64,000 nt of DNA, taken from a virus. A program made the translations under genes and the position numbers. The DNA is taken from positions 14,975-78,974 of the IMG/VR virus record IMGVR_UViG_3300012936_003649. One strand, written 5' to 3'. The notes under the pieces are model-generated. The model searched no databases. It was not told where the DNA came from and saw only the letters and a program-made list of their open reading frames with translations. Within the stretch, counting starts at the first letter, position 1, and each line of letters opens with the position of its first letter. Of the stretch, positions 20,260 through 41,698 are shown piece by piece.

Positions 20260-20270
20260 AAATTTATCCA

Positions 20271-20350
20271 TATAAATAATTAAAACTATAGTTAATTGTA
20301 ACATATAACAGCCAGAAGTCAAGGAAATTGGTAAAATCCACGAATAAGTA
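20271..20350 (+). promoter_or_regulatory. Late-type boxes TATAAATA (20271-20278) and AATAAGTA (20343-20350)
   Basis: Upstream of the radical SAM array; the second box lies 5 nt before ATG 20356. Confidence 0.5.
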
Positions 20351-20355
20351 ATAGT

Positions 20356-21762
20356 ATGACAAACATTAAATACCCATCCGATACCTTCTGCCTTCTTCCC
20401 TGGGTGCATTTAAGCACAAGACCAGATGGAAGTATGCGAGTTTGCTGTACTGCAAATGCAAGTTCAGTAGGACCTACTAATGACAAAGAGCATGGTGGGC
20501 AAGTAGGAATCCTAAAAGATGAACAAGGAAGACCTAACAATTTAAATGTAAGTGATTTTGAAACAGCATGGAATAGTACATATATGAAGAATGTACGAAA
20601 ACAAATGCTGAATGGTGAAATGCCACCTAGTTGTATTAAGTGTTATAAAGAAGAAGCCGCAGGACATAATTCAAAACGTATGTGGGAAACAGCATATTGG
20701 TCTGAGCGTGTTGATGTTGATAAAGTAATTGCTAATACAGGAGAAGACGGATCAGTGCCTCCACAACTTGCTTATATTGATTTACGTTTCGGTACAAAAT
20801 GTCAATTAGCGTGTGTAATGTGTAGTCCGCACGATTCAAGTGGTTGGATTAAAGACTACAAAAAGATTTTTCCGGATGTAAAAAATGAATCTCTAAAAGA
20901 AACTATGCAATGGAAAGACAAAGGCAGTTATAACGGTAGTAGTTATAATTGGCACAAACAAAATCCTACATTTTGGAAACAGTTTTATGAGCAGATGCCT
21001 AGTATGCAACAAATTTATTTTGCAGGCGGCGAAAGTCTTATTATTGAAGAACACTACGAAATACTTGAACATGCTATCAAAATGGGCTATGCAAAAGATT
21101 TAGAACTACGTTATAATTCAAATGGTGTTGAATGGCGTGATGATTTGTTTGACTTATGGAAAGAATTTAAATTAGTACGTTTTCATTATTCAATAGATAG
21201 TATTAAAGAAATGAATGATTACATACGTTATCCTAGTACTTGGAAACGTCAAGAAGAAGTTTTTCACATACTAGATAATGAAACAAGTAATAATGTAGAA
21301 GTAACAGTTGCTTGTGCAGTTCAAGCACTAAACATATATTATATTCCTGACTTTATAAAGTGGAAACTTACACAAGGATTCAAAAAAATTAATATGTGGC
21401 CTTTTGGTGCAGGCGCTATTAACTATCATTTTGTTTATCACCCTCCGCATTTGAATGTTAAAATTTTGCCTAAATGGTTCAAAGAAGAGTGTCGTAAAAA
21501 GTACGAAGAATTTTACCCTTGGTGGGAAGAAAATTGGGAACTAGGTGTTCCTAGTTGGCATAAAGGCAAAGTACCGTATCAAAAATGGCGTGATGCAAGT
21601 TATGGTATTAGTAGACTAGAAGGTATGCTAAAATTTATGGAAAGCGAAGACTGGAGTAGGCGTTTGCCGGAAATGAAAGAGTTCCTTGACTTATGCGACA
21701 AACAGCGTGGAATAACTTTTGCTGAAACATTCCCAGAAATGAAGGACATATTCAATGGCTAA
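20356..21762 (+). CDS. N-terminal twitch-domain radical SAM enzyme 1
   Basis: FCLLPWVHL..RPDG..RVCC...CIKC, then CQLACVMC, FAGGES, YNSN, SID. Confidence 0.9.
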   Translation: MTNIKYPSDTFCLLPWVHLSTRPDGSMRVCCTANASSVGPTNDKEHGGQVGILKDEQGRPNNLNVSDFETAWNSTYMKNVRKQMLNGEMPPSCIKCYKEEAAGHNSKRMWETAYWSERVDVDKVIANTGEDGSVPPQLAYIDLRFGTKCQLACVMCSPHDSSGWIKDYKKIFPDVKNESLKETMQWKDKGSYNGSSYNWHKQNPTFWKQFYEQMPSMQQIYFAGGESLIIEEHYEILEHAIKMGYAKDLELRYNSNGVEWRDDLFDLWKEFKLVRFHYSIDSIKEMNDYIRYPSTWKRQEEVFHILDNETSNNVEVTVACAVQALNIYYIPDFIKWKLTQGFKKINMWPFGAGAINYHFVYHPPHLNVKILPKWFKEECRKKYEEFYPWWEENWELGVPSWHKGKVPYQKWRDASYGISRLEGMLKFMESEDWSRRLPEMKEFLDLCDKQRGITFAETFPEMKDIFNG

Positions 21763-22951
21763 GCCAATTTGTAGTGCTGTTCAGCATGGATTAGCAATTA
21801 CAGCATATGGAGCAGTCAATCCATGTTGTGCTAGTGGTGATTTCAAACACATAACTGAAATAGATAACATAGTTGATTATGTCAGGAATAATAAAGAATT
21901 AAAAGATAAACGTGCTATAGAGTATACCGATGAATGGATACCAGAATGCACAGGCTGTGATCAAAAATCACGTAAAGGTTTGATATCTCGTAAAGATAAG
22001 ATGTTAAATTGGTTTCCTTTCGCAGATGAACAATGGTCGTTAAAAAACAAAGACACTTACATACACATGGATATAAGTTTTGGTAATACTTGTAGTCAGC
22101 AGTGTATTATGTGTAATAGTAATTTTAGTAGCAAATGGTTGAAGTATGACTTAGAATTAAATGAATCAAACGATAGTCGTAAAAAATTTGCAAGAAATTT
22201 TGATATTATGGCTTTAAAAAATTGGAGTTTAAATTATGAACAATTAGATCAAATTGCAAGTCTTGTATCATATGAGACTAGAATGATAGAAATTAAAGGG
22301 GGAGAACCTTTATACGATAAAAGATTCGATTACTTTGTACAAGCAGTTTTAAAACGTAATCCGAATGTAAAGATTAGCACTAATACCAACGGTATACACT
22401 TTAGTAAAAAAACTATTGACATGCTTAATAATATTAACAGATTAAATGTTGATATAAGTTATGACGGCACTGAAAAAGTATACGAATGGATTAGGTCTAG
22501 TAAGTGGGACATGGCTGTAGAAAATTATAAAAGATGTTTGTCACATCTGCGCCATTGTCCCACTTTGAATTATACAACTATGATGTATAATGTAGATCAT
22601 TTTGAAACATTTTATAATTGGGCGGCAGATATGTCAGAAAAATATGATAGGCGTGTGCCTCTGCATTTTACACAAGTAGTTACAGCACCAAAGCATATAG
22701 GACCTGCGTTTGCTTCAAAGGAGCGTATAAAAAATGGCATAAGCCAATTAGAAATGATGTATGATGATCCTAGAGATGCAGGCGCAAGTGATAGTGCAAT
22801 TTATAAACCCCGTATAAAAAACTTAATTGCGTTCTTACAAAAGTGCTATGATCAAAAATTAGAAAGCAAAGAAAGTGAAAGGCATGTAGAAGTACATGAC
22901 TGGTTAACAAAAGTAAGGGGATGGGATATAAAAGATTATGCCAACATGTAA
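21755..22951 (+). CDS. N-terminal twitch-domain radical SAM enzyme 2
   Basis: IC...PCC...CTGC; CSQQCIMC; KGGEP; TNTNG; SYDG. Confidence 0.88.
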   Translation: MAKPICSAVQHGLAITAYGAVNPCCASGDFKHITEIDNIVDYVRNNKELKDKRAIEYTDEWIPECTGCDQKSRKGLISRKDKMLNWFPFADEQWSLKNKDTYIHMDISFGNTCSQQCIMCNSNFSSKWLKYDLELNESNDSRKKFARNFDIMALKNWSLNYEQLDQIASLVSYETRMIEIKGGEPLYDKRFDYFVQAVLKRNPNVKISTNTNGIHFSKKTIDMLNNINRLNVDISYDGTEKVYEWIRSSKWDMAVENYKRCLSHLRHCPTLNYTTMMYNVDHFETFYNWAADMSEKYDRRVPLHFTQVVTAPKHIGPAFASKERIKNGISQLEMMYDDPRDAGASDSAIYKPRIKNLIAFLQKCYDQKLESKESERHVEVHDWLTKVRGWDIKDYANM

Positions 22952-24098
22952 AGTACCATGGATGACTATTACCTTAGCGGCAAACGGCGGCATAAAGCCG
23001 TGTTGTGTCTACGAAGGTGGTGACTGGAGTATACATAATGGTGATACTTTAGACAGTGCATGGAAAGACATGGATACGTTAAGGCAAAAATTTATAAATG
23101 GTGAAAGGCCTAAAGAATGTAGACAATGTTGGAAGCGTGAAGCAAGTTTAGGACACAGCCGTAGAACATGGTACGATGATAAAATAGAAGAATGGCCAAA
23201 TGAATACAAATTAAATCCGCCTATGCAGTTACGTCATATGGATTTAAACTTTGGTAATACTTGCAATCTAAAATGTCGTATGTGTGGTAGTTGGGGAAGT
23301 ACAGCATGGTTCAAAGAAGAAGAGAAATTAATTGCTATTGATAGAGATTTCCAACGCAGTAGAGGACCAAGACGTCCTACTATTATCCCAGCAAGTTACT
23401 GGGAAGATAAAAAAGATATGTTTCAATATTTAGAACGTATTGACTTTAAAGGTGGCGAGCCTATGATGCAAGATGGTATGTATGACTTTTTAGAATATCT
23501 TGTTGAATGGGGATACGCTCCTAAAATTACTATTGCATATACAACCAATGGAACAAAAACACCAGAACGCTTGAAAGACTTGTGGCCTAAATTTAAAAGA
23601 GTAAAATTAATTATTAGTGTAGAAGGTACAGGAAAACTTTACGAATATATCCGTGGAGGAGATGTACAATCATTAGAAAGTTTAAAAGAAAATATTCATT
23701 GGTTTGATCAATTTGAAAATTTGCGTGGTAGTTTCAACAGTGCAATACAGATATACAATATTTTTGATTTGAACAATTTACTTGAATGGTTTAGAGATAC
23801 TGTTAATGCTAGTAAAAAATGGCATAGAGATCCTGACACATTTAAATTTGATTGTTTAGTTTCTAGCCCACCTTATTTGAATATTAATATTATGCCAGAT
23901 GAATTAAAACAAAAAGCAATAGAAATTATAGATGAAAAAAACTATAAAAGTCTGCAAACAATTCGTACAGCATTAACTAGGTCGTCTTACAATAATAAGC
24001 AATGGGACTTGTTTGTTCGCTTTACTAATGAACTAGACAAAATGCGTGGCGGTATTCAATGTTTAGATGTTGTGCCACAACTAAAAGGATACATGTAA
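22938..24098 (+). CDS. N-terminal twitch-domain radical SAM enzyme 3
   Basis: CKVPW...PCC...CRQC; CNLKCRMC; KGGEP; TTNG. Confidence 0.9.
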   Translation: MPTCKVPWMTITLAANGGIKPCCVYEGGDWSIHNGDTLDSAWKDMDTLRQKFINGERPKECRQCWKREASLGHSRRTWYDDKIEEWPNEYKLNPPMQLRHMDLNFGNTCNLKCRMCGSWGSTAWFKEEEKLIAIDRDFQRSRGPRRPTIIPASYWEDKKDMFQYLERIDFKGGEPMMQDGMYDFLEYLVEWGYAPKITIAYTTNGTKTPERLKDLWPKFKRVKLIISVEGTGKLYEYIRGGDVQSLESLKENIHWFDQFENLRGSFNSAIQIYNIFDLNNLLEWFRDTVNASKKWHRDPDTFKFDCLVSSPPYLNINIMPDELKQKAIEIIDEKNYKSLQTIRTALTRSSYNNKQWDLFVRFTNELDKMRGGIQCLDVVPQLKGYM

Positions 24099-25369
24099 TG
24101 ACTAATCCTAAATTTTCACCTTATAATTATTGTGTATATTTGAACAACCAGCCTTATATTGATAACGACGGTATGATTTTTTCATGTTGCAAAAACAGAA
24201 AAACACGCCTACCTTACAATATAAAAGATATGCCACTTATTGATATGTTTAACACTCCTGAGTTTATTGAAACTAGAAAACAAATGGCTGAAGGTATTAT
24301 GCCATTTGGATGTGAACCGTGTTATAGTGCAGAAGCAAAAGGTCAAAACAATAGTTTTAGAATAAGAAGTTTGAAGGGTGTGCGTTTCAGAGATCATGGA
24401 CCTGTTAAAACTTTACCGGAGGGTATGGATCAATCAATTTATATTAAACCTTACCCTGACACTAAAATTAGGGCTTTAGATTTGAGATTAGGATCAACTT
24501 GCAATCTTACTTGCGTTATGTGTTATCCTAGTGATAGTAATAAATGGCATAAAATATTTGAAGATTACGCTAGAACTGTAAACAAAGAAACTGAAAATGC
24601 AATAAACATTACAATGAATAGATATGATCCTAAAAAACTTAATTGGGCTGAAGATCCTAAAGCATGGGATAATATTTTTTGTAGTATTGATGATGATGTC
24701 AAAAGGATATATCTTGCTGGCGGCGAACCTTTTTATATTAGAGGATTTGAAGATTACTTGGTAGAATTATACAACAAGTGTCCGCAAGCATTTATAGAAA
24801 TTAATACAAATGCAACACGCCTACTACCTGAAAAATATTTGAAAAAATTAAAAGGAGCAAAATTAGGAATCCGTGTTAGCATTGATGGATTAGGAACAGT
24901 AGACGAATATGTACGTCAAGGAACTAAATGGGATGAAAAAGTACAAGTAATCGATCAATACCAAAAATATTTTGATATAACTAGTTTTGATATTACTGTA
25001 AGTTCTTTGAATGTGCATAATTTACCAGACACGCTTCAATGGATTAAAGACAATTATATTAATGAAAATGAGTTTCCTACAATACTTGTACGTCCTGTTA
25101 TAAGTCAAAAAGGTTTGAGTATTAATGTGCTTCCTTTACATGAACGACAGGAGATATTAAACAGATTAAATGCACTATTAGACAATTGGCCTAATTATAA
25201 GCGTAAACTTAATATTAATGAAGTTATTGCTAAATTGTCTGAAGAACAAGTAGATGAAATTGATAAACTAGGAAGGATTATAAATTTTTGGGAAAAGTCG
25301 TCAAAAATAAGTTACGAAAATATCAATCCAAAATTAATAAGGTGGGTACATGCAAACAGTAGCAGTTGA
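24098..25369 (+). CDS. N-terminal twitch-domain radical SAM enzyme 4
   Basis: TAATG-coupled start MTNPKF; YC...SCC...CEPC; CNLTCVMC; AGGEP. Confidence 0.88.
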   Translation: MTNPKFSPYNYCVYLNNQPYIDNDGMIFSCCKNRKTRLPYNIKDMPLIDMFNTPEFIETRKQMAEGIMPFGCEPCYSAEAKGQNNSFRIRSLKGVRFRDHGPVKTLPEGMDQSIYIKPYPDTKIRALDLRLGSTCNLTCVMCYPSDSNKWHKIFEDYARTVNKETENAINITMNRYDPKKLNWAEDPKAWDNIFCSIDDDVKRIYLAGGEPFYIRGFEDYLVELYNKCPQAFIEINTNATRLLPEKYLKKLKGAKLGIRVSIDGLGTVDEYVRQGTKWDEKVQVIDQYQKYFDITSFDITVSSLNVHNLPDTLQWIKDNYINENEFPTILVRPVISQKGLSINVLPLHERQEILNRLNALLDNWPNYKRKLNINEVIAKLSEEQVDEIDKLGRIINFWEKSSKISYENINPKLIRWVHANSSS

Positions 25370-26102
25370 ACATGCAAGTCCAAACCAAGCCAAGGTTGTA
25401 AAGATCGAATGGAATATGGGCAAACGTTGTAACTTTAATTGTAGTTATTGTGATGAATTTACCCATGACCATAAAAGTAAACACATGAGTTTTGAAGTTG
25501 CACAACGAACTATTGATAAAATTGTTAGTAAATTACCTGGTAGAAGATTTAAAATAAATTTAACAGGTGGAGAACCTACTGTTAATCCTAACTTTGAAAA
25601 AATATTAGATTACATGTATAGTAAAGGTATTGATGTTGGATTAACAACTAATGGCAGTAGAACACTAGAATTTTACAAAAGAATACTTCCAAAACTAGCA
25701 AGTTTTATTGTTAGTTATCATATGGAGTATCACAAGAGAGAAGTTATTCCTGAAAACATTGTAGCCTTAAAGAAACTAGCACTAGAACAAGACAGGTATA
25801 TACACGTACATGTCCACATGATGATGTTGCCTACAACATTTGACGAAGCAAAAGAAGCAATAGAGTATCTAAAAGAAAATGATGTTCCTGTTGTTATGCG
25901 TAGAATACGTCCTGCAAGGATGAAGCAACATCCTGATAGTAAATTTAACGAAAAAGGTCAACTAATCGAAGGCCCTATATCTAGACCATTTTATGATGGT
26001 ATTGTAACACAATTATTTAAAAACGGATCTCCTTATTATGGAGGAGACAAAGACTATTATTCGGAAGATGAAATAGAATTTTTGGAGAATGCCGGTGTAT
26101 AA
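25350..26102 (+). CDS. Radical SAM enzyme, core domain only
   Basis: CNFNCSYC, LTGGEPT, TTNGSR, SYH; related to the N-terminal part of 39747. Confidence 0.88.
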   Translation: MQTVAVEHASPNQAKVVKIEWNMGKRCNFNCSYCDEFTHDHKSKHMSFEVAQRTIDKIVSKLPGRRFKINLTGGEPTVNPNFEKILDYMYSKGIDVGLTTNGSRTLEFYKRILPKLASFIVSYHMEYHKREVIPENIVALKKLALEQDRYIHVHVHMMMLPTTFDEAKEAIEYLKENDVPVVMRRIRPARMKQHPDSKFNEKGQLIEGPISRPFYDGIVTQLFKNGSPYYGGDKDYYSEDEIEFLENAGV

Positions 26103-26463
26103 TACTTTAAAAAATCAAAACAAAGCAGGAAGTTTTGTCAATGTTGCAACTATACAAGAGCGAGAAGAAGGGTTGACAAAGGTTGAAGAAAATGTTAACG
26201 ATATATTAGTAAGAAAAGAAAATGAATACATTGATTGGTTATGTTGGAGCGGTCAAGAAAGTTTGTTTATTAGAGATAACGGCGATGTTTTCAATGCAAC
26301 ATGTAGAGTAAAGTATTTAGGTAATATATATGATGATTTTGATATTCCGACTGAACCAATTATTTGCAAAAAACAATGGTGTGCTTGTGCCGCCGACTTA
26401 AATACTTCTAAAGCAAAAGATGTAGAGTCAGCAAAATATTTAAGGATAAACAATGGAACTTAG
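26089..26463 (+). CDS. Stand-alone SPASM-like Fe-S domain protein
   Basis: CWSG..SLFIRDNGDVFNATC...LGNI...P..C....CACAAD aligns with the C-terminus of 39747. Confidence 0.7.
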   Translation: MPVYNTLKNQNKAGSFVNVATIQEREEGLTKVEENVNDILVRKENEYIDWLCWSGQESLFIRDNGDVFNATCRVKYLGNIYDDFDIPTEPIICKKQWCACAADLNTSKAKDVESAKYLRINNGT

Positions 26464-27070
26464 TCAAAGATGGAAAAATAGACGTACCGAAAGATGGTTT
26501 TCGGATGCTGATGTTGAAGAAGAAAAAATTAAAAAACTTTGTGATGTTATACCACATATTCCTTCTCAACAAAGTATTGTAGATCATTATTGGTGTTGCT
26601 TTTCCAAAGATGAAAAAGAAATGAGAGATTTTTTATTTTATCACGTTTTCTTATCTAAAAAAGGTTTTGATCGCAATCATGTTGACGATGACATTCTTCA
26701 TTTTGGAAGTATACTGACTGCTCCCTACGTGCTTGTAGGATTACATAGAAGTGGTATGCCCTCACATAATGATATAGGATTGCACACTGGTGTTTTATTA
26801 GCAACTGCATTAGAATTAGAACTTGATGTTGCAACAATGGGATGTCAAGCAGGATTTGTAAAAGTTAAAAAATTCAACAAACTTATTAGAAAACATAGAA
26901 ACATACCGGACAAAAATCATCTTATTCCAGTAATGGCAGTTTGTGTTGGATATAAAGAAAGACATCCTAAAGAATATTTTTATTTAGAAGATGGAACTAG
27001 AGTGAACACACAACTATCAGTTGATAGAGATAGAAAACCAAATAATTTTGTAGGAAAACATGAGCAATAA
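26453..27070 (+). CDS. Nitroreductase-fold flavoprotein
   Basis: W.NRRTERWF...V..EKI...PSQQ...IGLHTG.L...A.EL.LD...MGC...VCVG pattern. Confidence 0.6.
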   Translation: MELSQRWKNRRTERWFSDADVEEEKIKKLCDVIPHIPSQQSIVDHYWCCFSKDEKEMRDFLFYHVFLSKKGFDRNHVDDDILHFGSILTAPYVLVGLHRSGMPSHNDIGLHTGVLLATALELELDVATMGCQAGFVKVKKFNKLIRKHRNIPDKNHLIPVMAVCVGYKERHPKEYFYLEDGTRVNTQLSVDRDRKPNNFVGKHEQ

Positions 27071-28334
27071 AGATAAAGCATTAAAAAGTGATACGTTTTG
27101 CTTGTTGCCTTTCATACATATGGCAACAAAAACCGATGGCGATATGAAACTATGCTGTCGCAGTTGGCCTGTAGGTAATATAAATGAAACCACAATGAAA
27201 GAATTATGGAACAGCGACAAATATAAAGAAGTAAGACGTATGATGCTTGATGGAGAAAGACCAAAAGAATGTGATGCTTGTTGGCGACAGGAAGATATTG
27301 GTGTAAGAAGTATGCGACAGCGTTATAACAAAACTAGAACCAAAAAATATTTGTCTCGGTTAGATAATATGTCTGATGATTACACAATGCCTTTTGAAAT
27401 TCCTGTGCTAGAATCTAAACTTAGTAATTTTTGTAATTTAAAATGTCGCATGTGTCATCCACTTGATAGTACAAGTTGGAGTAAAGACTGGGAAACAATT
27501 GAACACTTAATGGAAAAAGCCAACGGAAGTACTTTTAGAAAAGTTCGTGAATTTGGACTGACAAGAAAGCCTTACATAAGTGGCTGGGAAAAGAATGATG
27601 AATTTTGGAAAGAGTTTGAAGAACTTGCTCCGCACTTTGAGCGTATAGAATTTGCTGGAGGAGAACCTTTGATTGATCCTATACATTATCGTATTTTAAA
27701 TATTCTTAAAAAATATGGAAGTAATATAGAATTAAAGTATAGTACTAATCTTACAAAACTAAACTATAAAAAAGATGATGTTATGGAGTTATGGAATCAC
27801 TTCAAAGGCGTGGAGGTGATGATTAGTATTGATGGTGTTGACGATGTTTACAATTATATTAGGCAACTAGGTGATTATGAAATTGTAAAAAAGAATATTT
27901 TAAAAGTTGTTGATCATCCTAAGGTAGTTAAAATAGCAGGCGCTTGTACATTCCAAGTATACAATATTTTTAGTATGCCTGAAATTTTTGATCAATTTAC
28001 AGAAGATCTCAACATAGATATTCATGCACATAGAGTAAACTATCCAACGTTTTTAGATATGAGATTGATACCTGATAGTGTAAAACAACCGTTGACAAAA
28101 AAACTTGAAGATTATGTAGACACTATTGAAAACAAAACACATTCAAATTGGACCGAAGAAAGAAAACAAAATGCGATCAAACACGGCAAGGATAATATTG
28201 CCGCACTTAATGGAGGTTCTTTGACTAAAGAGATTCCAGCATTTATTGAATTTAGTGATAGATTAGATCACAAACAAAAAGTAGTAAAAGATTGGAAAGA
28301 ATTACTTCCAGAATTAGCAAAGGAAATAATATGA
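27060..28334 (+). CDS. N-terminal twitch-domain radical SAM enzyme 5
   Basis: FCLLPFIH...DG..KLCC...CDAC; CNLKCRMC; AGGEP; SIDG. Confidence 0.9.
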   Translation: MSNKDKALKSDTFCLLPFIHMATKTDGDMKLCCRSWPVGNINETTMKELWNSDKYKEVRRMMLDGERPKECDACWRQEDIGVRSMRQRYNKTRTKKYLSRLDNMSDDYTMPFEIPVLESKLSNFCNLKCRMCHPLDSTSWSKDWETIEHLMEKANGSTFRKVREFGLTRKPYISGWEKNDEFWKEFEELAPHFERIEFAGGEPLIDPIHYRILNILKKYGSNIELKYSTNLTKLNYKKDDVMELWNHFKGVEVMISIDGVDDVYNYIRQLGDYEIVKKNILKVVDHPKVVKIAGACTFQVYNIFSMPEIFDQFTEDLNIDIHAHRVNYPTFLDMRLIPDSVKQPLTKKLEDYVDTIENKTHSNWTEERKQNAIKHGKDNIAALNGGSLTKEIPAFIEFSDRLDHKQKVVKDWKELLPELAKEII

Positions 28335-29728: not shown

Positions 29729-30429
29729 TGGAAGAAATTAGAGAAATAATTAGACGTAATGCAAATATAATACACAATGAACATATTCCACCTATTCCAG
29801 AAGAGTTTAGAGATGGAAAAAATGATGCTAAGTTCTGTGATTGGATTATAAGTCATAGCATGTTGCCATCTTTTCCTTTAGATATTGAAATTCCACACGA
29901 AGAAATGTATAAAGAAGCAATGGCGCAAAAGCATCGATTTGTAAAACATAGAGGTAGTAGCAGTCCGGGCTGGTCCAGTATGGCGATCCATGGCACAGCA
30001 GTACATCATACTTCACCGAGAGAAAATTATTTTGAACAAGACAATATGCCAGAGTATGATTGGACTGAACTTGCAGACCTATGTCCAATTACAAAACAGT
30101 GGTTACAAAATTTAGGATTCAAAAAATATCAAAGAGTGCGTTTCATGTTACTTGATCCTGGAGGTTACATCAATCCTCACAGAGATGTTGATGTGAGAAA
30201 ACTTCATGCTTGGAACGTGGCAATAAATAATCCTGTAGGACATAAATTTGTCTTAGATGGACACGGAATAATTCCTTGGAAAGTCGGCGAAGTTAGAGGT
30301 ATTGATATATCTCAACTGCATACTGTAGTCAATGATGGTGTAGAACCAAGACTACACATGATTATACACGGCCACTTTGATGAAGGAATAGCAAAGACTA
30401 TTTGCAGGAGTTATGAAAAGTTGGTATGA
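29728..30429 (+). CDS. 2OG-Fe(II) oxygenase, aspartyl/asparaginyl beta-hydroxylase-like
   Basis: RVRFMLLDPGGYINPHRD...LHTVVN....RLHMIIHG (HxD...H...R). Confidence 0.8.
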   Translation: MEEIREIIRRNANIIHNEHIPPIPEEFRDGKNDAKFCDWIISHSMLPSFPLDIEIPHEEMYKEAMAQKHRFVKHRGSSSPGWSSMAIHGTAVHHTSPRENYFEQDNMPEYDWTELADLCPITKQWLQNLGFKKYQRVRFMLLDPGGYINPHRDVDVRKLHAWNVAINNPVGHKFVLDGHGIIPWKVGEVRGIDISQLHTVVNDGVEPRLHMIIHGHFDEGIAKTICRSYEKLV

Positions 30430-31928
30430 CAAAATACGATATTGCTTTAGTAAGTACACCAGTTATGGAGACAAATGTGCCTGCGCCTGCAATCTATTAT
30501 TTGAAAGGCGCATTAAATCCGCATGGCTTCAAAACAAGATGTTTCGACTTAGTACGAGATAGTGAAGAGTATTTTGGCAAAGAGGAAAACAAACAAGTAA
30601 ACAGTTATTTACTTGCTGATTGGCATGCTGGCATGCACACAGTAAAGAAAGATAAAGAAATTTATGATATGATTGTTGACTATTACAGAGATTATGTAGT
30701 AGAGCGTATTGCTCCCACGCAAGCAGAATGGGTTGGAATAAGTGTGTTCAGTCAAAACAGTCAAAAATCATCTCATATACTTTGCAAAGTAGTACGTGAA
30801 GTTATGCCTGACGCTAAAATTATATTGGGAGGCACAGGACTTGGCATTAGTATGGGAGGTAAAAAAACATTCGGTACTAGGTTAATTGAAGAAGGATATG
30901 CTGATTACTTTATTGACGGAGAAGGAGAAAACGCTCTTGTTGCATTATTAAAAGGAGATACATCCTATCCAGGTATTAATAGTACACAATATAAACAGAT
31001 TGACAAAATAGATGATATTCCCTTTCCTGATTACAGTGACTACCAAGAAGATTACGGCGATATAACTAAAATTACCCTAACTGGGTCACGTGGGTGTGTA
31101 AGGCGTTGTAGTTTTTGTGATATAGGAGCATTTTGGAAAAAGTTTAGATTTAGAAGCGGTGAAAATATTGCAAAGGAAATGATTAGAAATAAAAAAGAAT
31201 ATAATTCAAAAACATACTTCTTTTCAGATAGTCTAATAAATGGTAGTATGAAAGCGTTTAGAGACCTATGTGTCGTATTAGCAGACTACCATGAAAAACA
31301 TCCTAAAATTAAAGATAGGATTAAATGGGGCGGACAATTTATTATACGTAGTGAAAGACAAAGTCCTGCTTCGGATTATGAATTAATGGCTAAGGCAGGA
31401 ATGACTTGGGCTAGTATTGGTATTGAAAGTGCAAGCGAAGATGTTCGCAATCATATGGACAAGCAATTTAGTAATGAGGACATGTATTTTAGCATTGATC
31501 AACTTATTAAAAATGGTATAGGCGTTACAGCAATGTTCATTGTAGGTTATCCAACTGAAACATTAGAAATGTTTGATGAAAACATAAAATTTTTAAAATA
31601 CTATGCAGATAGAAATAGTTCTAAGTATACAAGGAATGGATTAGATCCAGGAGACTATGGTTGTATCAGAGATATTAATTTAGGACAAACGTTGGGTGTG
31701 TTAGACGATAGTCCATTAGCATCAATGACTGACGATTTTGAAGGTAAAGACACTTGGGTATCTAAAACAGTAGAAGGACTAGATTTTGAAGAGCGTGTAC
31801 GTAGGAGAAAAAAACTTTCAAGAGTTGCAAATGCATTAGGATATAATGTACGTTGGGATGAAAAACAATTACACTTTTTAAATAAAAAATTAGAAGATTG
31901 GAAACAAGAAGGGAAACCTATAAGATGA
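30426..31928 (+). CDS. Cobalamin-binding (class B-like) radical SAM enzyme
   Basis: N-terminal P.PAI..LK...VGISVFS...IILGG...GEGE; SRGCVRRCSFC; DSLING; IGIES; IVGYPTET. Confidence 0.85.
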   Translation: MTKYDIALVSTPVMETNVPAPAIYYLKGALNPHGFKTRCFDLVRDSEEYFGKEENKQVNSYLLADWHAGMHTVKKDKEIYDMIVDYYRDYVVERIAPTQAEWVGISVFSQNSQKSSHILCKVVREVMPDAKIILGGTGLGISMGGKKTFGTRLIEEGYADYFIDGEGENALVALLKGDTSYPGINSTQYKQIDKIDDIPFPDYSDYQEDYGDITKITLTGSRGCVRRCSFCDIGAFWKKFRFRSGENIAKEMIRNKKEYNSKTYFFSDSLINGSMKAFRDLCVVLADYHEKHPKIKDRIKWGGQFIIRSERQSPASDYELMAKAGMTWASIGIESASEDVRNHMDKQFSNEDMYFSIDQLIKNGIGVTAMFIVGYPTETLEMFDENIKFLKYYADRNSSKYTRNGLDPGDYGCIRDINLGQTLGVLDDSPLASMTDDFEGKDTWVSKTVEGLDFEERVRRRKKLSRVANALGYNVRWDEKQLHFLNKKLEDWKQEGKPIR

Positions 31929-32599
31929 GGAATATTGAAACATGGAAATCACGCTATACTGTAAAACAGTTTACAGATAAAGAAATTGATTTAGAAGATA
32001 TGGAATACTTAACAGACCTATTTGAATATATTCCTATTCAACAAGGATTGCTAAGTCATTTTTGGTTAAGATTAGGTCCTGAAGAGCAGGATTTTAAAAC
32101 ATTCTTGTATGAAAAAGTTTTTCATATGAAAGATAAATCTGAACATATGTATGCTGTTGCTTCATCACCTTATGTATTTCTAGGAGTATATCATCAGCAA
32201 GGACTTGTTGGAAAAGGTGGAAGGATGTCTCATGTTTCTGAACATGAAGCAATTATAAATCTTGGATTTCATGGAGGAGTGTTATTAAGCGAAGCACTAC
32301 ACTTAGGATACGATGTTTCACAAGTTGCTTGTCAAGAAGGCATAAACAAAAATTGGCCTGAATTCAATCAACGTGTAAGAGATTTTTTGTCTGAAGAAGA
32401 TGTTAAAAAATTAATGTTTCATCCTGCTAGATTACCCAAGGTAGACTTCCATCCAAAATTAGTCATTTGTATTGGTAAAGGTTTACCTTTAACGGAAAAT
32501 GTTAGTACTGTAATAAGAGATGGTTTTCCAGCCAAGGTACATCAAAAACCTAAAAAACCTGCAACTAATCTTGTATTAAGGAAACCTGCGAATGAATAA
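31925..32599 (+). CDS. Nitroreductase-fold flavoprotein (paralogue of 26453)
   Basis: WKSRYTVKQFTDKEI...IPIQQ...SPYV...LGFHGGVLL..A..LGYD....AC...CIG. Confidence 0.6.
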   Translation: MRNIETWKSRYTVKQFTDKEIDLEDMEYLTDLFEYIPIQQGLLSHFWLRLGPEEQDFKTFLYEKVFHMKDKSEHMYAVASSPYVFLGVYHQQGLVGKGGRMSHVSEHEAIINLGFHGGVLLSEALHLGYDVSQVACQEGINKNWPEFNQRVRDFLSEEDVKKLMFHPARLPKVDFHPKLVICIGKGLPLTENVSTVIRDGFPAKVHQKPKKPATNLVLRKPANE

Positions 32600-33758
32600 T
32601 AAAACCTTTTGTATTTTGCCTTGGATGCACCTTGCTACAAACGCAAGTGGTAATCTGCGTGTGTGTTGTAATAGTACACCAGGCAAAAATTTTATTACAA
32701 AAGAAGATGGTACTCCTTATAAATTGCACAGAGACAATATGCAAGAAGCATGGGAAAGTGAAGTTTATAAAGTTATTAGAAAACAATTATTGAATGGCGA
32801 ACGTCCTGAAATGTGTACACGTTGTTTCCGTGAAGAAGATGTAGGTATTAAGAGTGCTAGGCAAGCATGGAATGACAAATGGATGCAAGACAAAGAATAT
32901 ACAATGGACGCACCATTTGATATCAAGTATGTGGACCTAAGATTAAGCAATTTATGTAACCTTAAATGTAGAATGTGTAATCCTTATGCTTCAAACATGT
33001 GGGTAAAAGAATGGGCAAGTGTTGACAATGCACTTAGTGAAAGTGAATACAAACGTCTTAGTAGAATGGATTGGCCTGAAGAAGAAAAAACTTGGGAAAA
33101 TTTATTCAGTATTGCACACACTGTTGAAGAAATATATTTGACAGGTGGCGAACCTACAGTTATAAAAAAACAGCAAAAGTTGTTAGACTATTTTATAGAA
33201 AACGGTACTTCTAAAAATATACGATTAAAATATAATACAAACTTAGTAAAAGTTCCTCCTTGGTTGTTAGATAGATGGACACACTTCAAGCGTGTGCAAC
33301 TTAATTGTTCAATAGACGCAGTAGGAGAATTAGATCGTTATATTAGACATCCGAGCAAATGGGAAGTTATTGTTAAGAATTTTGAAACTGTCAGACAATT
33401 ACCTAATGTAAATATTGAAATACATTGTACAGTACAAATGTATAACATACTTCGGTTACACGAACTAGTTAAGTGGGCAAAACCTTATGGGCATAAAATA
33501 TATTTAAACATACTTAATCATCCTGAATACCTAAATGTAAGAGTGTTACCTAAACATCTTAAAGATCAAGCAAAAGAATTTTTACAAGAACATCTTGATA
33601 TACCTAAGATGCAAGGATTGATTGATTATATGTATGCAGAAGACTGGAGCAAAAAACTTCCAGAATTTTTCAAATATACAAATACATTAGATAAGTCACG
33701 CAACGAGAACTTATTTAAAATATTACCGGAGTTTGATCTTGAAGTATCTAGTTACTAG
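32592..33758 (+). CDS. N-terminal twitch-domain radical SAM enzyme 6
   Basis: FCILPWMHL...G..RVCC...CTRC; CNLKCRMC; TGGEP; YNTN; SID. Confidence 0.9.
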   Translation: MNNKTFCILPWMHLATNASGNLRVCCNSTPGKNFITKEDGTPYKLHRDNMQEAWESEVYKVIRKQLLNGERPEMCTRCFREEDVGIKSARQAWNDKWMQDKEYTMDAPFDIKYVDLRLSNLCNLKCRMCNPYASNMWVKEWASVDNALSESEYKRLSRMDWPEEEKTWENLFSIAHTVEEIYLTGGEPTVIKKQQKLLDYFIENGTSKNIRLKYNTNLVKVPPWLLDRWTHFKRVQLNCSIDAVGELDRYIRHPSKWEVIVKNFETVRQLPNVNIEIHCTVQMYNILRLHELVKWAKPYGHKIYLNILNHPEYLNVRVLPKHLKDQAKEFLQEHLDIPKMQGLIDYMYAEDWSKKLPEFFKYTNTLDKSRNENLFKILPEFDLEVSSY

Positions 33759-34452
33759 TGGATGTAGTTTTACAGCGTATGAGCGTTGCTGGCCATATCG
33801 TTTAGTAGAACAATTAGGCAAAATAAATTATACCTTAATTAACGATGCTGAAGGCAGTAGCGGAAATGCTATGATTCATAGAAGGATTATCTATCAAGTA
33901 GGAAAACTGTTAGCACAAGGTATAGATAAAGATGATATTTTAGTTGGAGTTATGTGGAGTGGTGCAAATAGGCATAATATACATGATGAAAAAATAGAAC
34001 GCATAGGAAAGGATGATGTAAATCCTTATTATTGGCCTGAAGAAGGAGGCAGAGGTGCTTGGGAAATTTTTTGTGCTACAAATTCTTCAAGGAAAGTAAT
34101 GTGGTATTATCAACATGTTTTTAGTTACTATCAAAGCGTTTTAGAAACTTATGAATATATTAATCATTTACAAAATTATTTACAAATGAAAGATGTAAAA
34201 TATTTCATGTGTCCTTACATGGACGGTTGGGACTATGAAGGTTTTCATGATAATGATGATCCATATATTCGTATGCTTGTAGACAGTATTGATTATAGTA
34301 AATGGCCAACAAAGCAAGGTCAATGGGAATGGGTTAAGGAGAACTATGCAAATCTTAAATTGGCTAACCCTAAACATCCAGGACCAGAGCAAAACAATCT
34401 TTGGGTTGAAAAAGTAATAATTCCTTGGCTGAAAGAAAATAATTATGTCTAA
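33733..34452 (+). CDS. SGNH/GDSL-like hydrolase or acyltransferase
   Basis: LVTSGCSFT...W...GSSGN...VMWS...HPG near the C-terminus. Confidence 0.55.
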   Translation: MILKYLVTSGCSFTAYERCWPYRLVEQLGKINYTLINDAEGSSGNAMIHRRIIYQVGKLLAQGIDKDDILVGVMWSGANRHNIHDEKIERIGKDDVNPYYWPEEGGRGAWEIFCATNSSRKVMWYYQHVFSYYQSVLETYEYINHLQNYLQMKDVKYFMCPYMDGWDYEGFHDNDDPYIRMLVDSIDYSKWPTKQGQWEWVKENYANLKLANPKHPGPEQNNLWVEKVIIPWLKENNYV

Positions 34453-35623
34453 TGTATTTTGTCCATTGCCTTGGAATCACTTATTCGTAAGAGCAAACCA
34501 AGATGTCTTTCCTTGTTGTGAAACTAATTTAGTAAGTACAAAGTTTGACGAGTCTATTGAGAAGACAGCCAATCATCCTGTGTTTAATAAATTTAGATTA
34601 GATATACTAAATGGTTCAAAACTACCTCCAGAATGTCGTTCTTGCGAAATAAAAGAATTAGCAGGAAAACAGAGTCTTAGATTAGTTTCTTTAAAACACC
34701 ACAGTACTATGAACAAAGAAAAAGCACAAGCAATTACACAGCCAGATGGAAGTGTGCGTAATTTTAAATTAGAAAGATTAGACATTCGTAGTAGTAACTT
34801 GTGTAATTATAAGTGTAGATTCTGTGGGATTATAAGTAGCAACAGTTGGCTTAACGATCATAAGTTATTAGGTTATGAAGTTGAAAAATCGTACGATAAA
34901 AAAACTGGCATCGCTGAATTTGAATTGCCGTGGGAAGATCTAAAACAGCATCTGCCGTATGTAAAAGAAGTTAAACTTGCTGGTGGCGAACCAGTAATGA
35001 TGCCAGGAACTTATCAACTACTTGAAGAATTAATTTCTATAGGCAATACAGATGCAAAAATAGTGCTTATAACAAATGCAAGTATGGCTAATTATGGCAA
35101 TAAAAATATTATTGAATTGATTAAAAAATTTAAACGTTCAGTAATTATGTTAAGTGTTGATGGTATAGGACATGCCCATGAATGGTTGAGATCAGGTAAA
35201 AGTGATTGGCTAAAAGTAAAACAAGTTATAAAAGATTATACTTCTTTTGCAAACTATGATTCAGTTCATTTTCACGTAGGAGTATCTTGGATGAATATGT
35301 GGCATCTAGAAAAGTTTGTAAGAGAATATCCTAATCATAAATTTATATTCAACCCGGTAACTGATCCTGCTATATATTCTATTGCTAGGTTTCCTAAAGA
35401 ACAAGTTAATCTTGCGGCAGAACACTACAAAAAATTGTACAGTAAAGAAGGTCAAAATCAGTGGCTTGCAATTTATAATATGTTACATGCTATGGCAAAC
35501 AAAGACGCAGGCGAATTTGATCAGAAGGAGTTTGTTCGTGTAACAAATTTGTTAGATACTAGTAGGAAACAAGATTTCAGAAAAGCATTTCCTGAACATG
35601 CAAAGGTATTATTACATGGATAA
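34445..35623 (+). CDS. N-terminal twitch-domain radical SAM enzyme 7
   Basis: FCPLPWNH...PCC...CRSC; CNYKCRFC; AGGEP; SVDG. Confidence 0.9.
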   Translation: MSNVFCPLPWNHLFVRANQDVFPCCETNLVSTKFDESIEKTANHPVFNKFRLDILNGSKLPPECRSCEIKELAGKQSLRLVSLKHHSTMNKEKAQAITQPDGSVRNFKLERLDIRSSNLCNYKCRFCGIISSNSWLNDHKLLGYEVEKSYDKKTGIAEFELPWEDLKQHLPYVKEVKLAGGEPVMMPGTYQLLEELISIGNTDAKIVLITNASMANYGNKNIIELIKKFKRSVIMLSVDGIGHAHEWLRSGKSDWLKVKQVIKDYTSFANYDSVHFHVGVSWMNMWHLEKFVREYPNHKFIFNPVTDPAIYSIARFPKEQVNLAAEHYKKLYSKEGQNQWLAIYNMLHAMANKDAGEFDQKEFVRVTNLLDTSRKQDFRKAFPEHAKVLLHG

Positions 35624-36824
35624 GACAGCGTATTGCCCAATGCCATTTGTTACTCTTACTGTAAACCCAACAGGTGTTATAACTCGTTGTATGATGAGTA
35701 TGAAAACAATGGGCTCTATTTCAAAAAATACATATAGCAATGCAGAATTTCAAACATTAAGAAAAAATATGCTTAATGGTATTTGGGATGAAAAAGGTTG
35801 CGAGTCTTGTAAAAATGCAGAAGACAATGGTAGGTGGAGCCAAAGATTAAAATGGCTAGATAGAGAAGAAAAATATTTAGGAGAAACAGGCATATATGAA
35901 GCCAATACAAATATTGTCAAAAATGACATACACCATTTGTACATGAACTTTAATAATATTTGTAATTTTAAATGTAGAATGTGCGGTCCACATTTTAGTA
36001 ATGCATGGATACCAGATCATAATAAATTAGCAGAAGCAACAAAAACAACTAGACCTTGGTTAGAAAATTCAATGTCAAAACAAAGAATTGACATAGACAA
36101 TTTTTTTGATCAGTTTGGTGATATGATTTCAAACCTAAAACAGATTTGGATAACTGGCGGTGAACCATTTATAGATAATTCTATATATGATTTTTTTGAG
36201 CAGTTAAAAAAATATACAAATTTAAAAAATATAAAAGTGCTTATTAATACTAATGCAACAAAAGTAGATCCCCAAAAACTCATTCCTCTTATGAATGTAA
36301 AGCAATTAGCATTAAATATTAGTGTTGACGCAACAGGAAAATTATTTCCTTACATGCGTGGATATAACTATTCTTTTGATGATATAGATGCTAAAATTAG
36401 GAGTATATGCAAGTTGAAAAAAAGTTACAAAAATTTTCAAGTGCAAGTAAATGCGGCTTACCAAATATTTAATATACTTAATGTTGAAGATTTTTTTAAT
36501 TGGGCAAGTGAAATATTAGAAGATGAAACAGCAGGCTTAGTAGAATACAGAACTTTGCATGGTCCGCCTTTTTTGAGAGCAAGGAATGCACCTAAAGCAA
36601 TCAAGTATGATGCATTGTTAATGCTAGAAAGACTTGTAAAACGTTTTCCAAATAATAATTATTTTCCAGATATGATAAAAGAAGTTAAACAACAACAAGA
36701 TAAAAAAGATTTGGATGATTTTGTTTTATGGAACAAAAAATTAGATGAAATACGTAGTGAACATTTAGTAAAAGCATTTCCAGAACTTGTAAAATGTTTT
36801 AATAACGAAGGTCTTAGAATATGA
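35616..36824 (+). CDS. N-terminal twitch-domain radical SAM enzyme 8
   Basis: YCPMPF...G..TRCM...CESC (CC reduced to CM); CNFKCRMC; TGGEP. Confidence 0.88.
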   Translation: MDKTAYCPMPFVTLTVNPTGVITRCMMSMKTMGSISKNTYSNAEFQTLRKNMLNGIWDEKGCESCKNAEDNGRWSQRLKWLDREEKYLGETGIYEANTNIVKNDIHHLYMNFNNICNFKCRMCGPHFSNAWIPDHNKLAEATKTTRPWLENSMSKQRIDIDNFFDQFGDMISNLKQIWITGGEPFIDNSIYDFFEQLKKYTNLKNIKVLINTNATKVDPQKLIPLMNVKQLALNISVDATGKLFPYMRGYNYSFDDIDAKIRSICKLKKSYKNFQVQVNAAYQIFNILNVEDFFNWASEILEDETAGLVEYRTLHGPPFLRARNAPKAIKYDALLMLERLVKRFPNNNYFPDMIKEVKQQQDKKDLDDFVLWNKKLDEIRSEHLVKAFPELVKCFNNEGLRI

Positions 36825-37924
36825 CAACACGTTGGTGTCAAGCAGGAAAGAACCATATTTGGTTAAGGCAGGATTGGACTATTCAATTATGTTGTAGTCT
36901 TGTTGGTGATACTTGGGATCATCAAATGAAATTAGACAACCCCAAACATCTATTTAGAGTGCTTGCAAAACATTGGCCAGAAACTTATAAAATATTAGAA
37001 AAAGAACCATTACCAAAAGGCAAGTGTGCTATTTGTATTTCTGAACAAGAAATGCATGGTACAAGTCAAAGAACAAAAATTAATGAATTAACTAATGATG
37101 GTAAAAAGTTTTTTTTAAAGATAGACTTTAGTAATAAATGTAATTTAAAATGTACAATGTGTTCTAGCAAAAGATCAACTGGCTGGATCAAAGATGAACA
37201 AAAGATGAATAAGGCTCTTGAGGGTGATAGACGTTTAGAATTGCCTATAGCAGGGCATGAGACACTCGGATCAGAATGGTTTAAACAAATTCCAATTGAA
37301 TGGTTTAAAAATTTAGGAGCGGTAGAAATATCGGGAGGTGAACCATTATATCAAGAAGATGCATTAGAATTTTTAGAATTCTTATCAATAGAAGTTCCTG
37401 ATATACAAATGCGTATTATAACAAACACAACTCTTGTAGATGACAAAATTTTAACTATGCTAGGTAGATTTTCTAGACTACGTGTGCTTTGTAGTATAGA
37501 TGCATGGGAAAATGATTGCTATCAATATGTAAGAGGAGGTGTGTATGAACTTCCTCAAATTAAAGAGAACATTATTAAACTTGCAAAAACTGTAAGTGGC
37601 AATGTTGCTGTTGCCGACACAATACATCCTGCTAATTACAATCAATATGACCTTGGTGCAAAATTTATAGAAAAATTAAATAATGATTACAGTCCAAAAC
37701 GTCCTGTAAGATATAGTTGGAGTTATGTATCCAAGCCATTACATTTAAATCCTAGGACAGTATTGCCTGAAGAATTTGTTCCTGGTGAGAAAAACATAGC
37801 AGAACAAAAACTATTTTATAGGTTTACATCTAACTTAGACAAAATTAGAAAGCAAAACATATTAGACATAAGACCAGAATTTGAATCTTGGTGGAATGAA
37901 ATGGAAAAATTATGCAAACATTAG
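36821..37924 (+). CDS. N-terminal twitch-domain radical SAM enzyme 9
   Basis: WC...LCC...CAIC; CNLKCTMC; SGGEP; SID. Confidence 0.88.
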   Translation: MTTRWCQAGKNHIWLRQDWTIQLCCSLVGDTWDHQMKLDNPKHLFRVLAKHWPETYKILEKEPLPKGKCAICISEQEMHGTSQRTKINELTNDGKKFFLKIDFSNKCNLKCTMCSSKRSTGWIKDEQKMNKALEGDRRLELPIAGHETLGSEWFKQIPIEWFKNLGAVEISGGEPLYQEDALEFLEFLSIEVPDIQMRIITNTTLVDDKILTMLGRFSRLRVLCSIDAWENDCYQYVRGGVYELPQIKENIIKLAKTVSGNVAVADTIHPANYNQYDLGAKFIEKLNNDYSPKRPVRYSWSYVSKPLHLNPRTVLPEEFVPGEKNIAEQKLFYRFTSNLDKIRKQNILDIRPEFESWWNEMEKLCKH

Positions 37925-41643: not shown

Positions 41644-41648
41644 ATAAC

Positions 41649-41693
41649 TACTTATCCACCTTTATAGTTGCCAAATGCTATAACAGATAATTA
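41649..41693. promoter_or_regulatory. Divergent late-type boxes GATAAGTA (-, 41656-41649) and GATAATTA (+, 41686-41693)
   Basis: Each box lies exactly 5 nt before its ATG (41643 on -, 41699 on +). Confidence 0.45.
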
Positions 41694-41698
41694 CTAAT

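Follow-up and report, generated by a model that had tools for sequence, protein, structure and literature searches.

A cassette-like set of nine putative N-terminal-twitch radical SAM enzymes in an uncultured marine jumbo phage

Nine radical S-adenosylmethionine (SAM) enzymes with a predicted twitch domain ahead of the catalytic core are encoded between positions 20,356 and 37,924 of the DNA presented above, which comprises bases 14975-78974 of the 78,974-bp IMG/VR record IMGVR_UViG_3300012936_003649 (64,000 nucleotides, here called the window). Judged by their sequences, the nine genes are additional members of NF033640 (N_Twi_rSAM), a catalogued and uncharacterised family, and their array appears to be an assembled, cassette-like set of nine ancient subfamilies. 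As a whole, the observations are best explained by an intact ancient N_Twi set within a cassette island which tailors a sugar-bearing scaffold, a reading to which we give about an even chance. For this lineage it is new that a local expansion is formally rejected, that the island has a frame-plus-cassette structure and that the twitch assignment has structural support.

The record has a CheckV completeness of 22%, so that the full genome would measure roughly 350 kb. Genes upstream of the array match virion structural and tail-fibre families, a downstream ATPase is 50% identical to its homologue in PA5oct-type Pseudomonas jumbo phages, and related records are 236-400 kb long. For these reasons the record is regarded as phage DNA, and its assignment to a fragment of an uncultured marine jumbo phage is supported. 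A blastn comparison of 8 kb of the array with cultured phages gave zero matches.

The nine N_Twi genes

The copies, here named A to I, all lie on the + strand. Scores are those against NF033640, and percentages give the identity of orthologues.

20356..21762, + strand: copy A, 468 amino acids (aa); 422.4 bits, E 1.8e-126; up to 91%; a frame gene of the island
21755..22951, + strand: copy B, 398 aa, divergent; 156.8 bits (below 170), E 8.3e-46, full-length; up to 59%
22938..24098, + strand: copy C, 386 aa; 299.3 bits; up to 78%
24098..25369, + strand: copy D, 423 aa with the start at 24098; 222.7 bits; 42-45%
27060..28334, + strand: copy E, 424 aa; 364.2 bits; SPASM match at residues 14-75, E 9.7e-12; up to 77% (phage orthologues)
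32592..33758, + strand: copy F, 388 aa, the reference copy for modelling; 405.4 bits; 45-81%
34445..35623, + strand: copy G, 392 aa; 289.3 bits; up to 46%
35616..36824, + strand: copy H, 402 aa; 249.4 bits; up to 55%
36821..37924, + strand: copy I, 367 aa, divergent; 135.4 bits (below 170), E 2.7e-39, model positions 3-324; up to 50%

A first, sequence-only reading of the window had placed nine gene starts here, and each of them was recovered on this strand. Two are internal to longer open reading frames (ORFs): the ATG at 24098 of copy D (ORF beginning at 24059) and position 35616 of copy H, an alternative start within an ORF beginning at 35598.

For every copy the best family match is NCBIfam NF033640, with E-values from 2.7e-39 to 1.8e-126, and a scan of the whole record returned near-full-length matches to this family in exactly these nine genes. 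The agreement is far beyond chance. The curated cut-off of the family is set at 170 bits for the whole-protein score; seven copies (A, C, D, E, F, G and H) exceed it, whereas B and I fall below. The matches extend over the full length or nearly so, and the order of parts is that of the family: twitch domain, radical SAM core and a helical C-terminal part. The orphan N-terminal-twitch family to which the sequence-only reading referred does exist, as NF033640. Since this family has no assigned function, membership names an architecture and not a chemistry. A literature search on the family name, on phage enzymes with an N-terminal twitch domain and on SPASM proteins of Bdellovibrio found no study of the family.

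The proteins are 367-468 aa long and 18-33% identical to each other in pairwise alignment. All share the cysteine pattern C-x17-C(C)-x36-61-C-x2-C-x34-59-C-x3-C-x2-C. This pattern had been described as C-x~13-17-CC-x~35-70-CxxC before the SAM motif; the arrangement holds, with the amendments that the first spacing is exactly 17 residues in each copy and that copy H has C-M in place of the CC doublet present in the other eight. Only four or five cysteines precede the SAM motif, a number suited to one cluster, compared with seven or eight in a SPASM domain, and none is conserved downstream of it, copy G being devoid of cysteine in that region. Start methionine aside, 16 positions are invariant (F numbering): C7, C25, C75, C78, C122, C126, C129, S134, W137, G185, G186, E187, N217, S240, R252 and N285. 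PF04055 (Radical_SAM) is matched above its gathering score in all nine copies, and GGE is invariant. The SAM-cluster cysteines are kept in all nine, as had been claimed. Among 474 phage and bacterial homologues, the four N-terminal and the three SAM-motif cysteines are nearly invariant, and the second cysteine of the doublet is retained in about 87%.

The remaining motifs noticed earlier were examined in the alignment. GGE[PS] and S[IVY][DE] were verified, the former being GGES in A and GGEP in the other copies. The motif S[ST].W after the SAM cysteines is present in the wider form S-[STN]-x-W. Lastly, the C-terminal LD..R......PE stretch, ascribed to most copies, is found in E, F, G, H and I and takes degenerate forms in A, B, C and D.

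Twitch domain, core fold and predicted chemistry

The predicted twitch domain spans residues 1 to ~100, ahead of the core, in each of the nine proteins. Seven of them have an N-terminal match to Pfam SPASM (E down to 9.7e-12), and a profile of the nine copies aligns over positions 4-70 with residues 166-238 of BtrN, its twitch domain (E 8e-5). Structural comparison was based on an AlphaFold (AF2) model of copy F built on a 141-sequence alignment. The full-length model reached a pLDDT (predicted local distance difference test) of 96.8 and a pTM (predicted template modelling score) of 0.93. In this model, C7 and C25 flank a β-hairpin (residues 13-23), which is followed by helices and then by C75/C78. 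The N-terminal 109 residues modelled alone gave a pLDDT of 95.4. When this smaller model was searched with Foldseek against 350,542 chains, BtrN occupied ranks 1 and 2 (probability 0.99 and 0.82; TM 0.56; E 0.03), and the matches below resemble noise. With VIA-align, only two of 48,161 chains reached Z≥2, namely the BtrN twitch domain (164-248; Z 4.1, 83 residues, root-mean-square deviation 4.0 Å) and the SPASM domain of ChlB (Z 2.2). These match scores are weak but specific, and they support the assignment of the N-terminal domain as a twitch domain. The proposed layout of an N-terminal twitch domain and a radical SAM core is thus borne out by the SPASM matches, by the profile match to BtrN and by the agreement of two structure aligners.

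BtrN (2-deoxy-scyllo-inosamine dehydrogenase, PDB 4M7S/4M7T) is therefore the closest point of comparison, its twitch domain being the best and nearly the sole match to the N-terminal domain. In BtrN, four cysteines ligate an auxiliary cluster which has been proposed to accept the second electron in a two-electron oxidation (PMC9012708). Four conserved cysteine ligands are equally available in the N_Twi proteins, and a fully ligated auxiliary cluster is likely for this reason. Together, sequence and model make a second, auxiliary Fe-S cluster on the N-terminal cysteines likely. The BtrN substrate is, moreover, carbohydrate-like. In contrast, the twitch domain of BtrN, like that of every characterised twitch enzyme, is C-terminal (164-248), in line with the review cited above, which describes SPASM/twitch domains as C-terminal extensions (PMC9012708), whereas the N_Twi copies carry it before the core. 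Furthermore, the comparison with BtrN yields an identity of only ~17-18% and weak structural scores (Z 4.1; Foldseek E 0.03), and BtrN is a single-copy enzyme of an aminoglycoside pathway.

The core of the F model (residues ~105-350) aligns with anSME, BlsE, SkfB, viperin, CteB and MoaA at Z 13.8-12. Fold searches with the whole F model returned a flat list of generic radical SAM barrels and no function-level match. The C-terminal part of the model consists of helices only.

From homology, each enzyme would hold a SAM-cleaving [4Fe-4S] cluster on CxxxCxxC and a second [4Fe-4S] cluster, fully cysteine-ligated, on the four cysteines of the twitch domain. Hydrogen-atom abstraction from the substrate would fall to the 5′-deoxyadenosyl radical, and the second electron may pass to the auxiliary cluster, as has been proposed for BtrN. 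Overall, the substrate would undergo a two-electron oxidation or be cross-linked.

Origin of the set

Related loci were retrieved with two queries, protein F alone and a three-sequence alignment. Orthologues of F with 45-81% identity are present in 52 IMG/VR contigs. The best match of each copy in another phage contig has an identity of 91% for A, 59% for B, 78% for C, 42% for D, 77% for E, 81% for F, 46% for G, 55% for H and 50% for I. Within the genome, the best paralogue reaches 25-29% in BLAST comparisons and no more than 33% in alignments. In a FastTree phylogeny of 214 representatives, the label 'window' requires nine changes, which means that no two window copies are sisters. An IQ-TREE analysis of 53 rows groups each copy separately with its orthologues of other contigs, in nine clades of 99-100% support (B clade 100% SH-aLRT, D clade 100%). 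The clades of E and F are sister to Bdellovibrionota sequences, with 45% identity for E and 50% for F. Forcing the nine copies into one clade costs 3044 log-likelihood units and is rejected by the approximately unbiased (AU) test with p 1.75e-8.

Closer orthologues elsewhere and separate clades argue for nine old subfamilies and against a recent duplication burst. The sequence-only reading had suggested an old expansion. Its age stands; that it arose in this phage does not, given the AU test and the nine separate clades, and the phylogeny with homologues yields separate orthologous slots instead of a monophyletic expansion. The subfamilies being separately conserved, orthologue-rich targets such as A and F can be chosen.

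The nine could also be redundant or decaying paralogues without individual function, as their low mutual identity (18-33%) and the two copies below the family cut-off might suggest. We give this view practically no credence since the data contradict it. All nine reading frames are open, the cluster cysteines and SAM-binding motifs are kept, and every copy has conserved orthologues. NG86 ratios of nonsynonymous to synonymous substitution (dN/dS) against orthologues are 0.05-0.41, values which are upper bounds only because dS is saturated (1.3-2.1 or undefined). Even so, ratios well below 1 combined with invariant catalytic positions point to purifying selection on each copy and not to neutral decay, as the sequence-only reading had proposed. 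An in-frame TGA in one copy of the related records G002/G003 was considered separately; it is a normal stop codon and marks neither a pseudogene nor selenocysteine.

Distribution in phages, bacteria and metagenomes

In each of the 52 contigs, two to nine N_Twi genes lie within 10 kb of the F orthologue. Among related records, one of 399,796 bp has four copies, a fragment of 54 kb has 13, and three partial ones have 11 each. The 399,796-bp record (G001, CheckV 100%) has its four copies at 179-185 kb and tail-fibre homologues at 43-49 kb. The fibres are thus some 130 kb away from the array, which means that adjacency of the two is not universal. Here and in three related records (G002, G003 and G011), the distance from the array to tail-fibre genes is no more than ~10 kb.

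A profile search of 1.84 billion cluster representatives (50% identity clusters) found 7,731 at E≤1e-30, which puts the size of the family in the thousands; its copy number reaches 9-13 in marine jumbo phages and a maximum of 20 in Bdellovibrionota. Some metagenome proteins, of 770-1466 aa, are made up of two or three N_Twi units in one chain, and in others N_Twi is fused to tetratricopeptide repeats (TPR) or to Methyltransf_24 (among P0001-P0030, P0058, P0104 and P0126).

When one genome per prokaryotic species was scanned, the matches fell mainly to Bdellovibrionales and other Bdellovibrionota. Many bacterial matches are on megabase contigs and often in tandem; one Bdellovibrionales locus (L083) has seven copies together with a homologue of the island gene at 39747 described below. 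Three Bdellovibrionales metagenome-assembled genomes (MAGs; G006-G008) contain 12-20 copies, and one Paenibacillus and one Acidobacteriota genome contain one each. In an even sample of the phylum, 45 of 201 Bdellovibrionota genomes had matches above the family cut-off, compared with none of 14 control genomes. Bdellovibrionota are the main cellular reservoir of the family. The earlier belief that it is known mainly from uncultured marine sequences does not stand: N_Twi genes are abundant in jumbo phages and on Bdellovibrionota chromosomes instead. Tandem arrays of Bdellovibrionota share partner radical SAM and hydroxylase-like genes with the phage.

The top MAG matches, in a Crocinitomicaceae bin (81%) and a Gammaproteobacteria bin (74%), have the gene order of the phage island. 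Four MAG contigs (L063, L064, L091 and L125; Crocinitomicaceae, Gammaproteobacteria, Neisseriaceae and Verrucomicrobiales) carry frame genes of the island at 55-87% identity. All of these are probably phage contigs mis-binned into MAGs. A tblastn search of F against plasmids gave no match.

Cultured phages contain distant members only. The proteins of KVP40-type Vibrio phages and of Ralstonia phage RsoM2USA ('MoaA/NifB/PqqE family') match over their full length at 20-25% identity and have the same N-terminal cysteine pattern; genomes of these cultured jumbo or T4-like phages encode such proteins at two to five places. They differ in their lower copy number and in their neighbourhood, near nadV and a QueC-like gene, and are likewise uncharacterised. 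Members in cultured Vibrio phages, distant as they are, make the family approachable. That uncultured marine phages can carry a dozen radical SAM enzymes was noticed earlier by Nishimura et al. 2017 (PMC5332604), who counted 12 radical SAM genes in a T4-like environmental viral genome of marine origin. In that study the genes were counted as Fe-S-related auxiliary genes, and the N-terminal twitch domain, the subfamilies and the island structure were not described.

Layout of the island

Between 20356 and 39716, 19 genes follow each other with overlapping ends, and the island extends beyond this run. Gene-order maps of related contigs show a constant succession: the 14456 homologue, the 18043 homologue, A, a variable block, F, a second variable block and the 39747 homologue. 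The content between the frame genes, which consists of additional N_Twi copies and accessory genes, differs among contigs, and comparison of these maps indicates that related phages swap copies like cassettes inside a conserved frame. The fixed frame also suggests a minimal set for co-expression. Besides A and F, the frame genes are:

14456..17839, + strand: two domains resembling glycosyltransferase family 2 (GT2), residues 1-305 and 320-545; 1127 aa
18043..19125, + strand: radical SAM (Pfam Radical_SAM) with a Cys-rich, SPASM/twitch-like C-terminus
39747..40877, + strand: radical SAM (Radical_SAM E 8.4e-16) with a twitch-like C-terminal Cys domain

The two N-terminal domains of the 14456 protein are homologous to each other (an internal duplication), with a DGD motif in each. 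The remainder comprises helical repeats of ~23 aa (~598-930; HSLFRLLG…EDLRK) and a C-terminal domain (938-1127). Relatives encode these three parts as separate ORFs. The precomputed GT2 families PF13641 or PF00535 are assigned to homologues with 43-52% identity. The protein itself has a weak DUF6492 match, and its atlas leads, to GT2 and methyltransferase clusters, have scores below 0.8. It has no direct Pfam match, and sequence searches of the PDB with the single sequence and with a profile gave nothing meaningful. Homologues are found in 25 of the 52 related loci. The C-terminal domain is 42% identical to proteins at two Bdellovibrionales loci.

Of the 52 phage loci, 40 have a homologue of 18043, and so do 19 of the 78 bacterial ones; its place in relatives is just upstream of A. 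Homologues of the 39747 protein, with identities of up to 89-90%, end the array in 49 of the 52 phage loci; behind the seven-copy N_Twi array of the Bdellovibrionales locus L083 there is one with 38% identity.

The other genes within the array are:

25350..26463, + strand: split radical SAM, with a 250-aa core (25350-26102; Radical_SAM E 1.4e-17) and a 124-aa Cys-rich ORF (26089-26463)
26453..27070, + strand: nitroreductase-like (PF00881 E 3.6e-4, below the gathering score)
28292..29728, + strand: 478-aa protein with no Pfam or NCBIfam match; homologues in 10 of 52 related loci
29713..30429, + strand: Asp/Asn β-hydroxylase-like cupin (PF05118 E 1.9e-10); the family recurs in phage and Bdellovibrionota islands
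30426..31928, + strand: B12-binding radical SAM (class B; Radical_SAM and B12-binding)
31898..32599, + strand: 233-aa protein with no Pfam match; homologues in 6 of 52 related loci
33733..34452, + strand: DUF6071 protein between F and G (PF19547 E 2.4e-11)
37912-38793 and 38790-39716, + strand: two paralogues (26% identity, E 4e-20) with no Pfam match

In addition to the nine, the island contains two B12-type radical SAM enzymes and three radical SAM enzymes with a C-terminal Cys domain (18043, 39747 and the split pair 25350 and 26089). The best NCBIfam matches of the B12-binding enzyme at 30426 are the PhpK family and a lipid-type B12 radical SAM family, all below their cut-offs.

The Cys-rich ORF at 26089 is 33% identical to the C-terminus of the 39747 protein (E 2e-6), and because it aligns with that C-terminal Cys domain, 25350 and 26089 are taken as a split form of a 39747-type enzyme. 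In a Bdellovibrionales locus (L074:6668-7855) the two parts are joined in one protein of 396 aa. The auxiliary Cys domain is thus found in this island as a polypeptide of its own (the split ORF), at the C-terminus (39747-type genes) and at the N-terminus (N_Twi genes), three arrangements in all. An hhalign comparison of the N-terminal twitch profile with the Cys domains of 26089 and 18043 aligned the hairpin only, with probabilities of 0.8% and 14%. It is a speculative thought that the twitch-first architecture arose via permutation by duplication in tandem arrays of radical SAM and twitch genes.

Substrate class and competing explanations

Judging from context, we hold with moderate confidence that the substrate class is a glycan or glycolipid. 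A sugar substrate is favoured because homologues of 14456 carry GT2 domains, GT2 genes are among the neighbours, sugar genes occur in relatives and N_Twi is fused to Methyltransf_24 in metagenomes. It is favoured, too, by the fact that no RiPP recognition element (RRE; RiPP, ribosomally synthesised and post-translationally modified peptide), leader peptidase or precursor-like ORF was seen. Among 148 neighbours on long bacterial contigs, GT2 is the commonest family that is not radical SAM (8 proteins). Related phage islands encode a cytidylyltransferase, FkbM methyltransferases and a nucleoside diphosphate (NDP)-sugar epimerase/dehydratase. In the corresponding scheme, which is drawn from context, the copies would be interchangeable, site-specific tailoring modules acting on one glycan or glycolipid scaffold supplied by the island glycosyltransferase. 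The set of copies would determine the final structure, either on the virion or on the envelope of the infected cell. If the substrate is indeed a glycan, the family would offer a large untapped set of radical carbohydrate-tailoring reactions and phages would have a new route to vary surface structure.

A wider generalisation, which we judge somewhat improbable, would see N_Twi arrays as combinatorial 'radical glyco-editing'. Each subfamily would carry out its own, hitherto undescribed radical reaction on a polymer- or lipid-linked sugar, and phages and predatory Bdellovibrionota would swap cassettes and so diversify a recognition surface (host range, superinfection exclusion, prey contact).

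Several points weigh against a sugar-bearing scaffold. The evidence on substrate class comes from gene neighbourhood only, and genes for the synthesis of nucleotide sugars are absent from the window. The protein encoded at 14456 is assigned to GT2 indirectly, via its homologues, and has itself neither a direct Pfam nor a PDB match. The closest solved relatives of the core include the peptide modifiers SkfB, CteB and anSME, in a flat hit list (Z 13.8-10.4). The Asp/Asn-hydroxylase-like and TPR partners also fit a protein substrate, and both the Paenibacillus context of an acyl carrier protein (ACP), two ketosynthases and a ketoreductase and the fatty-acid desaturases of phage islands fit a lipid. 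Most neighbour proteins are without any family match. The sequence-only reading had expected the phage context to offer a functional clue; the clue is an indirect one, consisting of the GT2-like frame gene and of tail-fibre genes which are near the array in most, not all, relatives.

The nine enzymes might instead modify proteins or peptides by cross-linking, oxidation or epimerisation, on tail fibres, another virion protein or a RiPP-like peptide and alongside the hydroxylase-like and B12 radical SAM genes. PDB relatives of the core are led by SkfB (3e-13 by sequence, Z 13.2 by structure) and include CteB, anSME (Z 13.8), SuiB and ChlB. Asp/Asn β-hydroxylase-like genes are found at 29713 and 41699, the B12 enzyme at 30426 matches a RiPP C-methyltransferase family at 80 bits (below the cut-off), TPR fusions occur among metagenome homologues, and tail-fibre genes stand close to the array here and in the three records named above. 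However, SkfB, CteB, anSME and SuiB have a C-terminal auxiliary domain, many with two auxiliary clusters, and the majority either carry an N-terminal RRE or act on a precursor peptide encoded nearby; here, neither feature was found. No copy has a PqqD/RRE Pfam match at E≤0.01, and the C-terminal region is modelled as all-helical. The overlapping ends of the genes between 20356 and 39716 leave no room for a precursor-like small ORF, and none that was convincing was seen beside the seven-copy array of L083, although small ORFs were in no case searched systematically. Leader peptidase and RiPP transporter families are absent from the 25 most frequent families in censuses of 148 bacterial and 133 phage neighbours. 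Lastly, the complete relative G001 has its tail-fibre genes 130 kb away. Taken together, we regard a protein or peptide substrate as unlikely.

A second alternative is a lipid or acyl chain (lipid A, an acyl group of lipopolysaccharide or a membrane lipid), on which the enzymes would perform radical C-H functionalisation or C-C coupling. The single Paenibacillus copy lies between genes for an ACP, a short-chain dehydrogenase/reductase (SDR), two ketosynthases, a GT2 and a phosphopantetheinyl transferase (PPTase), and three fatty-acid desaturase clusters occur in related phage islands. Both B12 radical SAM enzymes match a 'lipid biosynthesis B12-binding/radical SAM' family below its cut-off. 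The Asp_Arg_Hydrox family, to be counted on the same side, includes the lipid A hydroxylase LpxO. The core profile also matches the lipid-coupling enzyme GDGT-MAS (3.6e-10), but this similarity is no better than that to many other radical SAM enzymes. Moreover, the window contains no acyl carrier, ketosynthase or acyltransferase gene, and ketosynthases are confined to two Paenibacillus loci. We consider a lipid substrate distinctly unlikely.

Yet another view would have the enzymes act on nucleotides or nucleic acids, in DNA hypermodification or in the viperin-like production or destruction of modified nucleotides during phage-host conflict. It can draw on weak sub-threshold matches to prokaryotic viperin and MoaA, on viperin and BlsE tying with the top structural matches, on the occurrence of QueC/PP-loop and thymidylate synthase genes both next to the KVP40 homologues and within some of the related islands, and on the GMP-reductase/IMPDH-like gene at 47080. 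Yet the viperin scores do not exceed 35 bits against a cut-off of 180, no hypermodification-type DNA glycosylase, kinase or transferase adjoins the array, and 9-13 copies per genome, with up to 20 in Bdellovibrionota, are far above any known nucleotide-modification pathway. This makes a nucleotide substrate very improbable.

Further observations on neighbouring genes

The Paenibacillus locus belongs to a cultured organism, Paenibacillus polysaccharolyticus (L118, 8278-19745), whose single N_Twi gene has an ABC transporter gene among its neighbours besides those listed above. The cluster is possibly of glycolipid or polyketide type.

The gene at 19126-20409 is the sole minus-strand gene within the + strand island. 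It has no homologue in the 52 related phage loci; its product is lipoprotein-like, with a weak LPAM match at residues 51-67 and an alginate-lyase domain (PF05426, E 1.6e-7). The proteins of the paralogous pair at 37912 and 38790 begin with the motif G-[LI]-F-G-D-S, similar to SGNH block I, and distant homologues of this pair and of the DUF6071 protein recur in related phage islands.

A second block of genes extends downstream from 40855 to 49402. Its last five genes, from an aminotransferase onward, were not found in the related loci fetched. The block encodes a nitroreductase-like protein on the minus strand, the hydroxylase-like protein at 41699, a class IV aminotransferase, a SAM methyltransferase, the second B12 radical SAM enzyme, the GMP-reductase/IMPDH-like protein at 47080 and a truncated AMP-binding domain.

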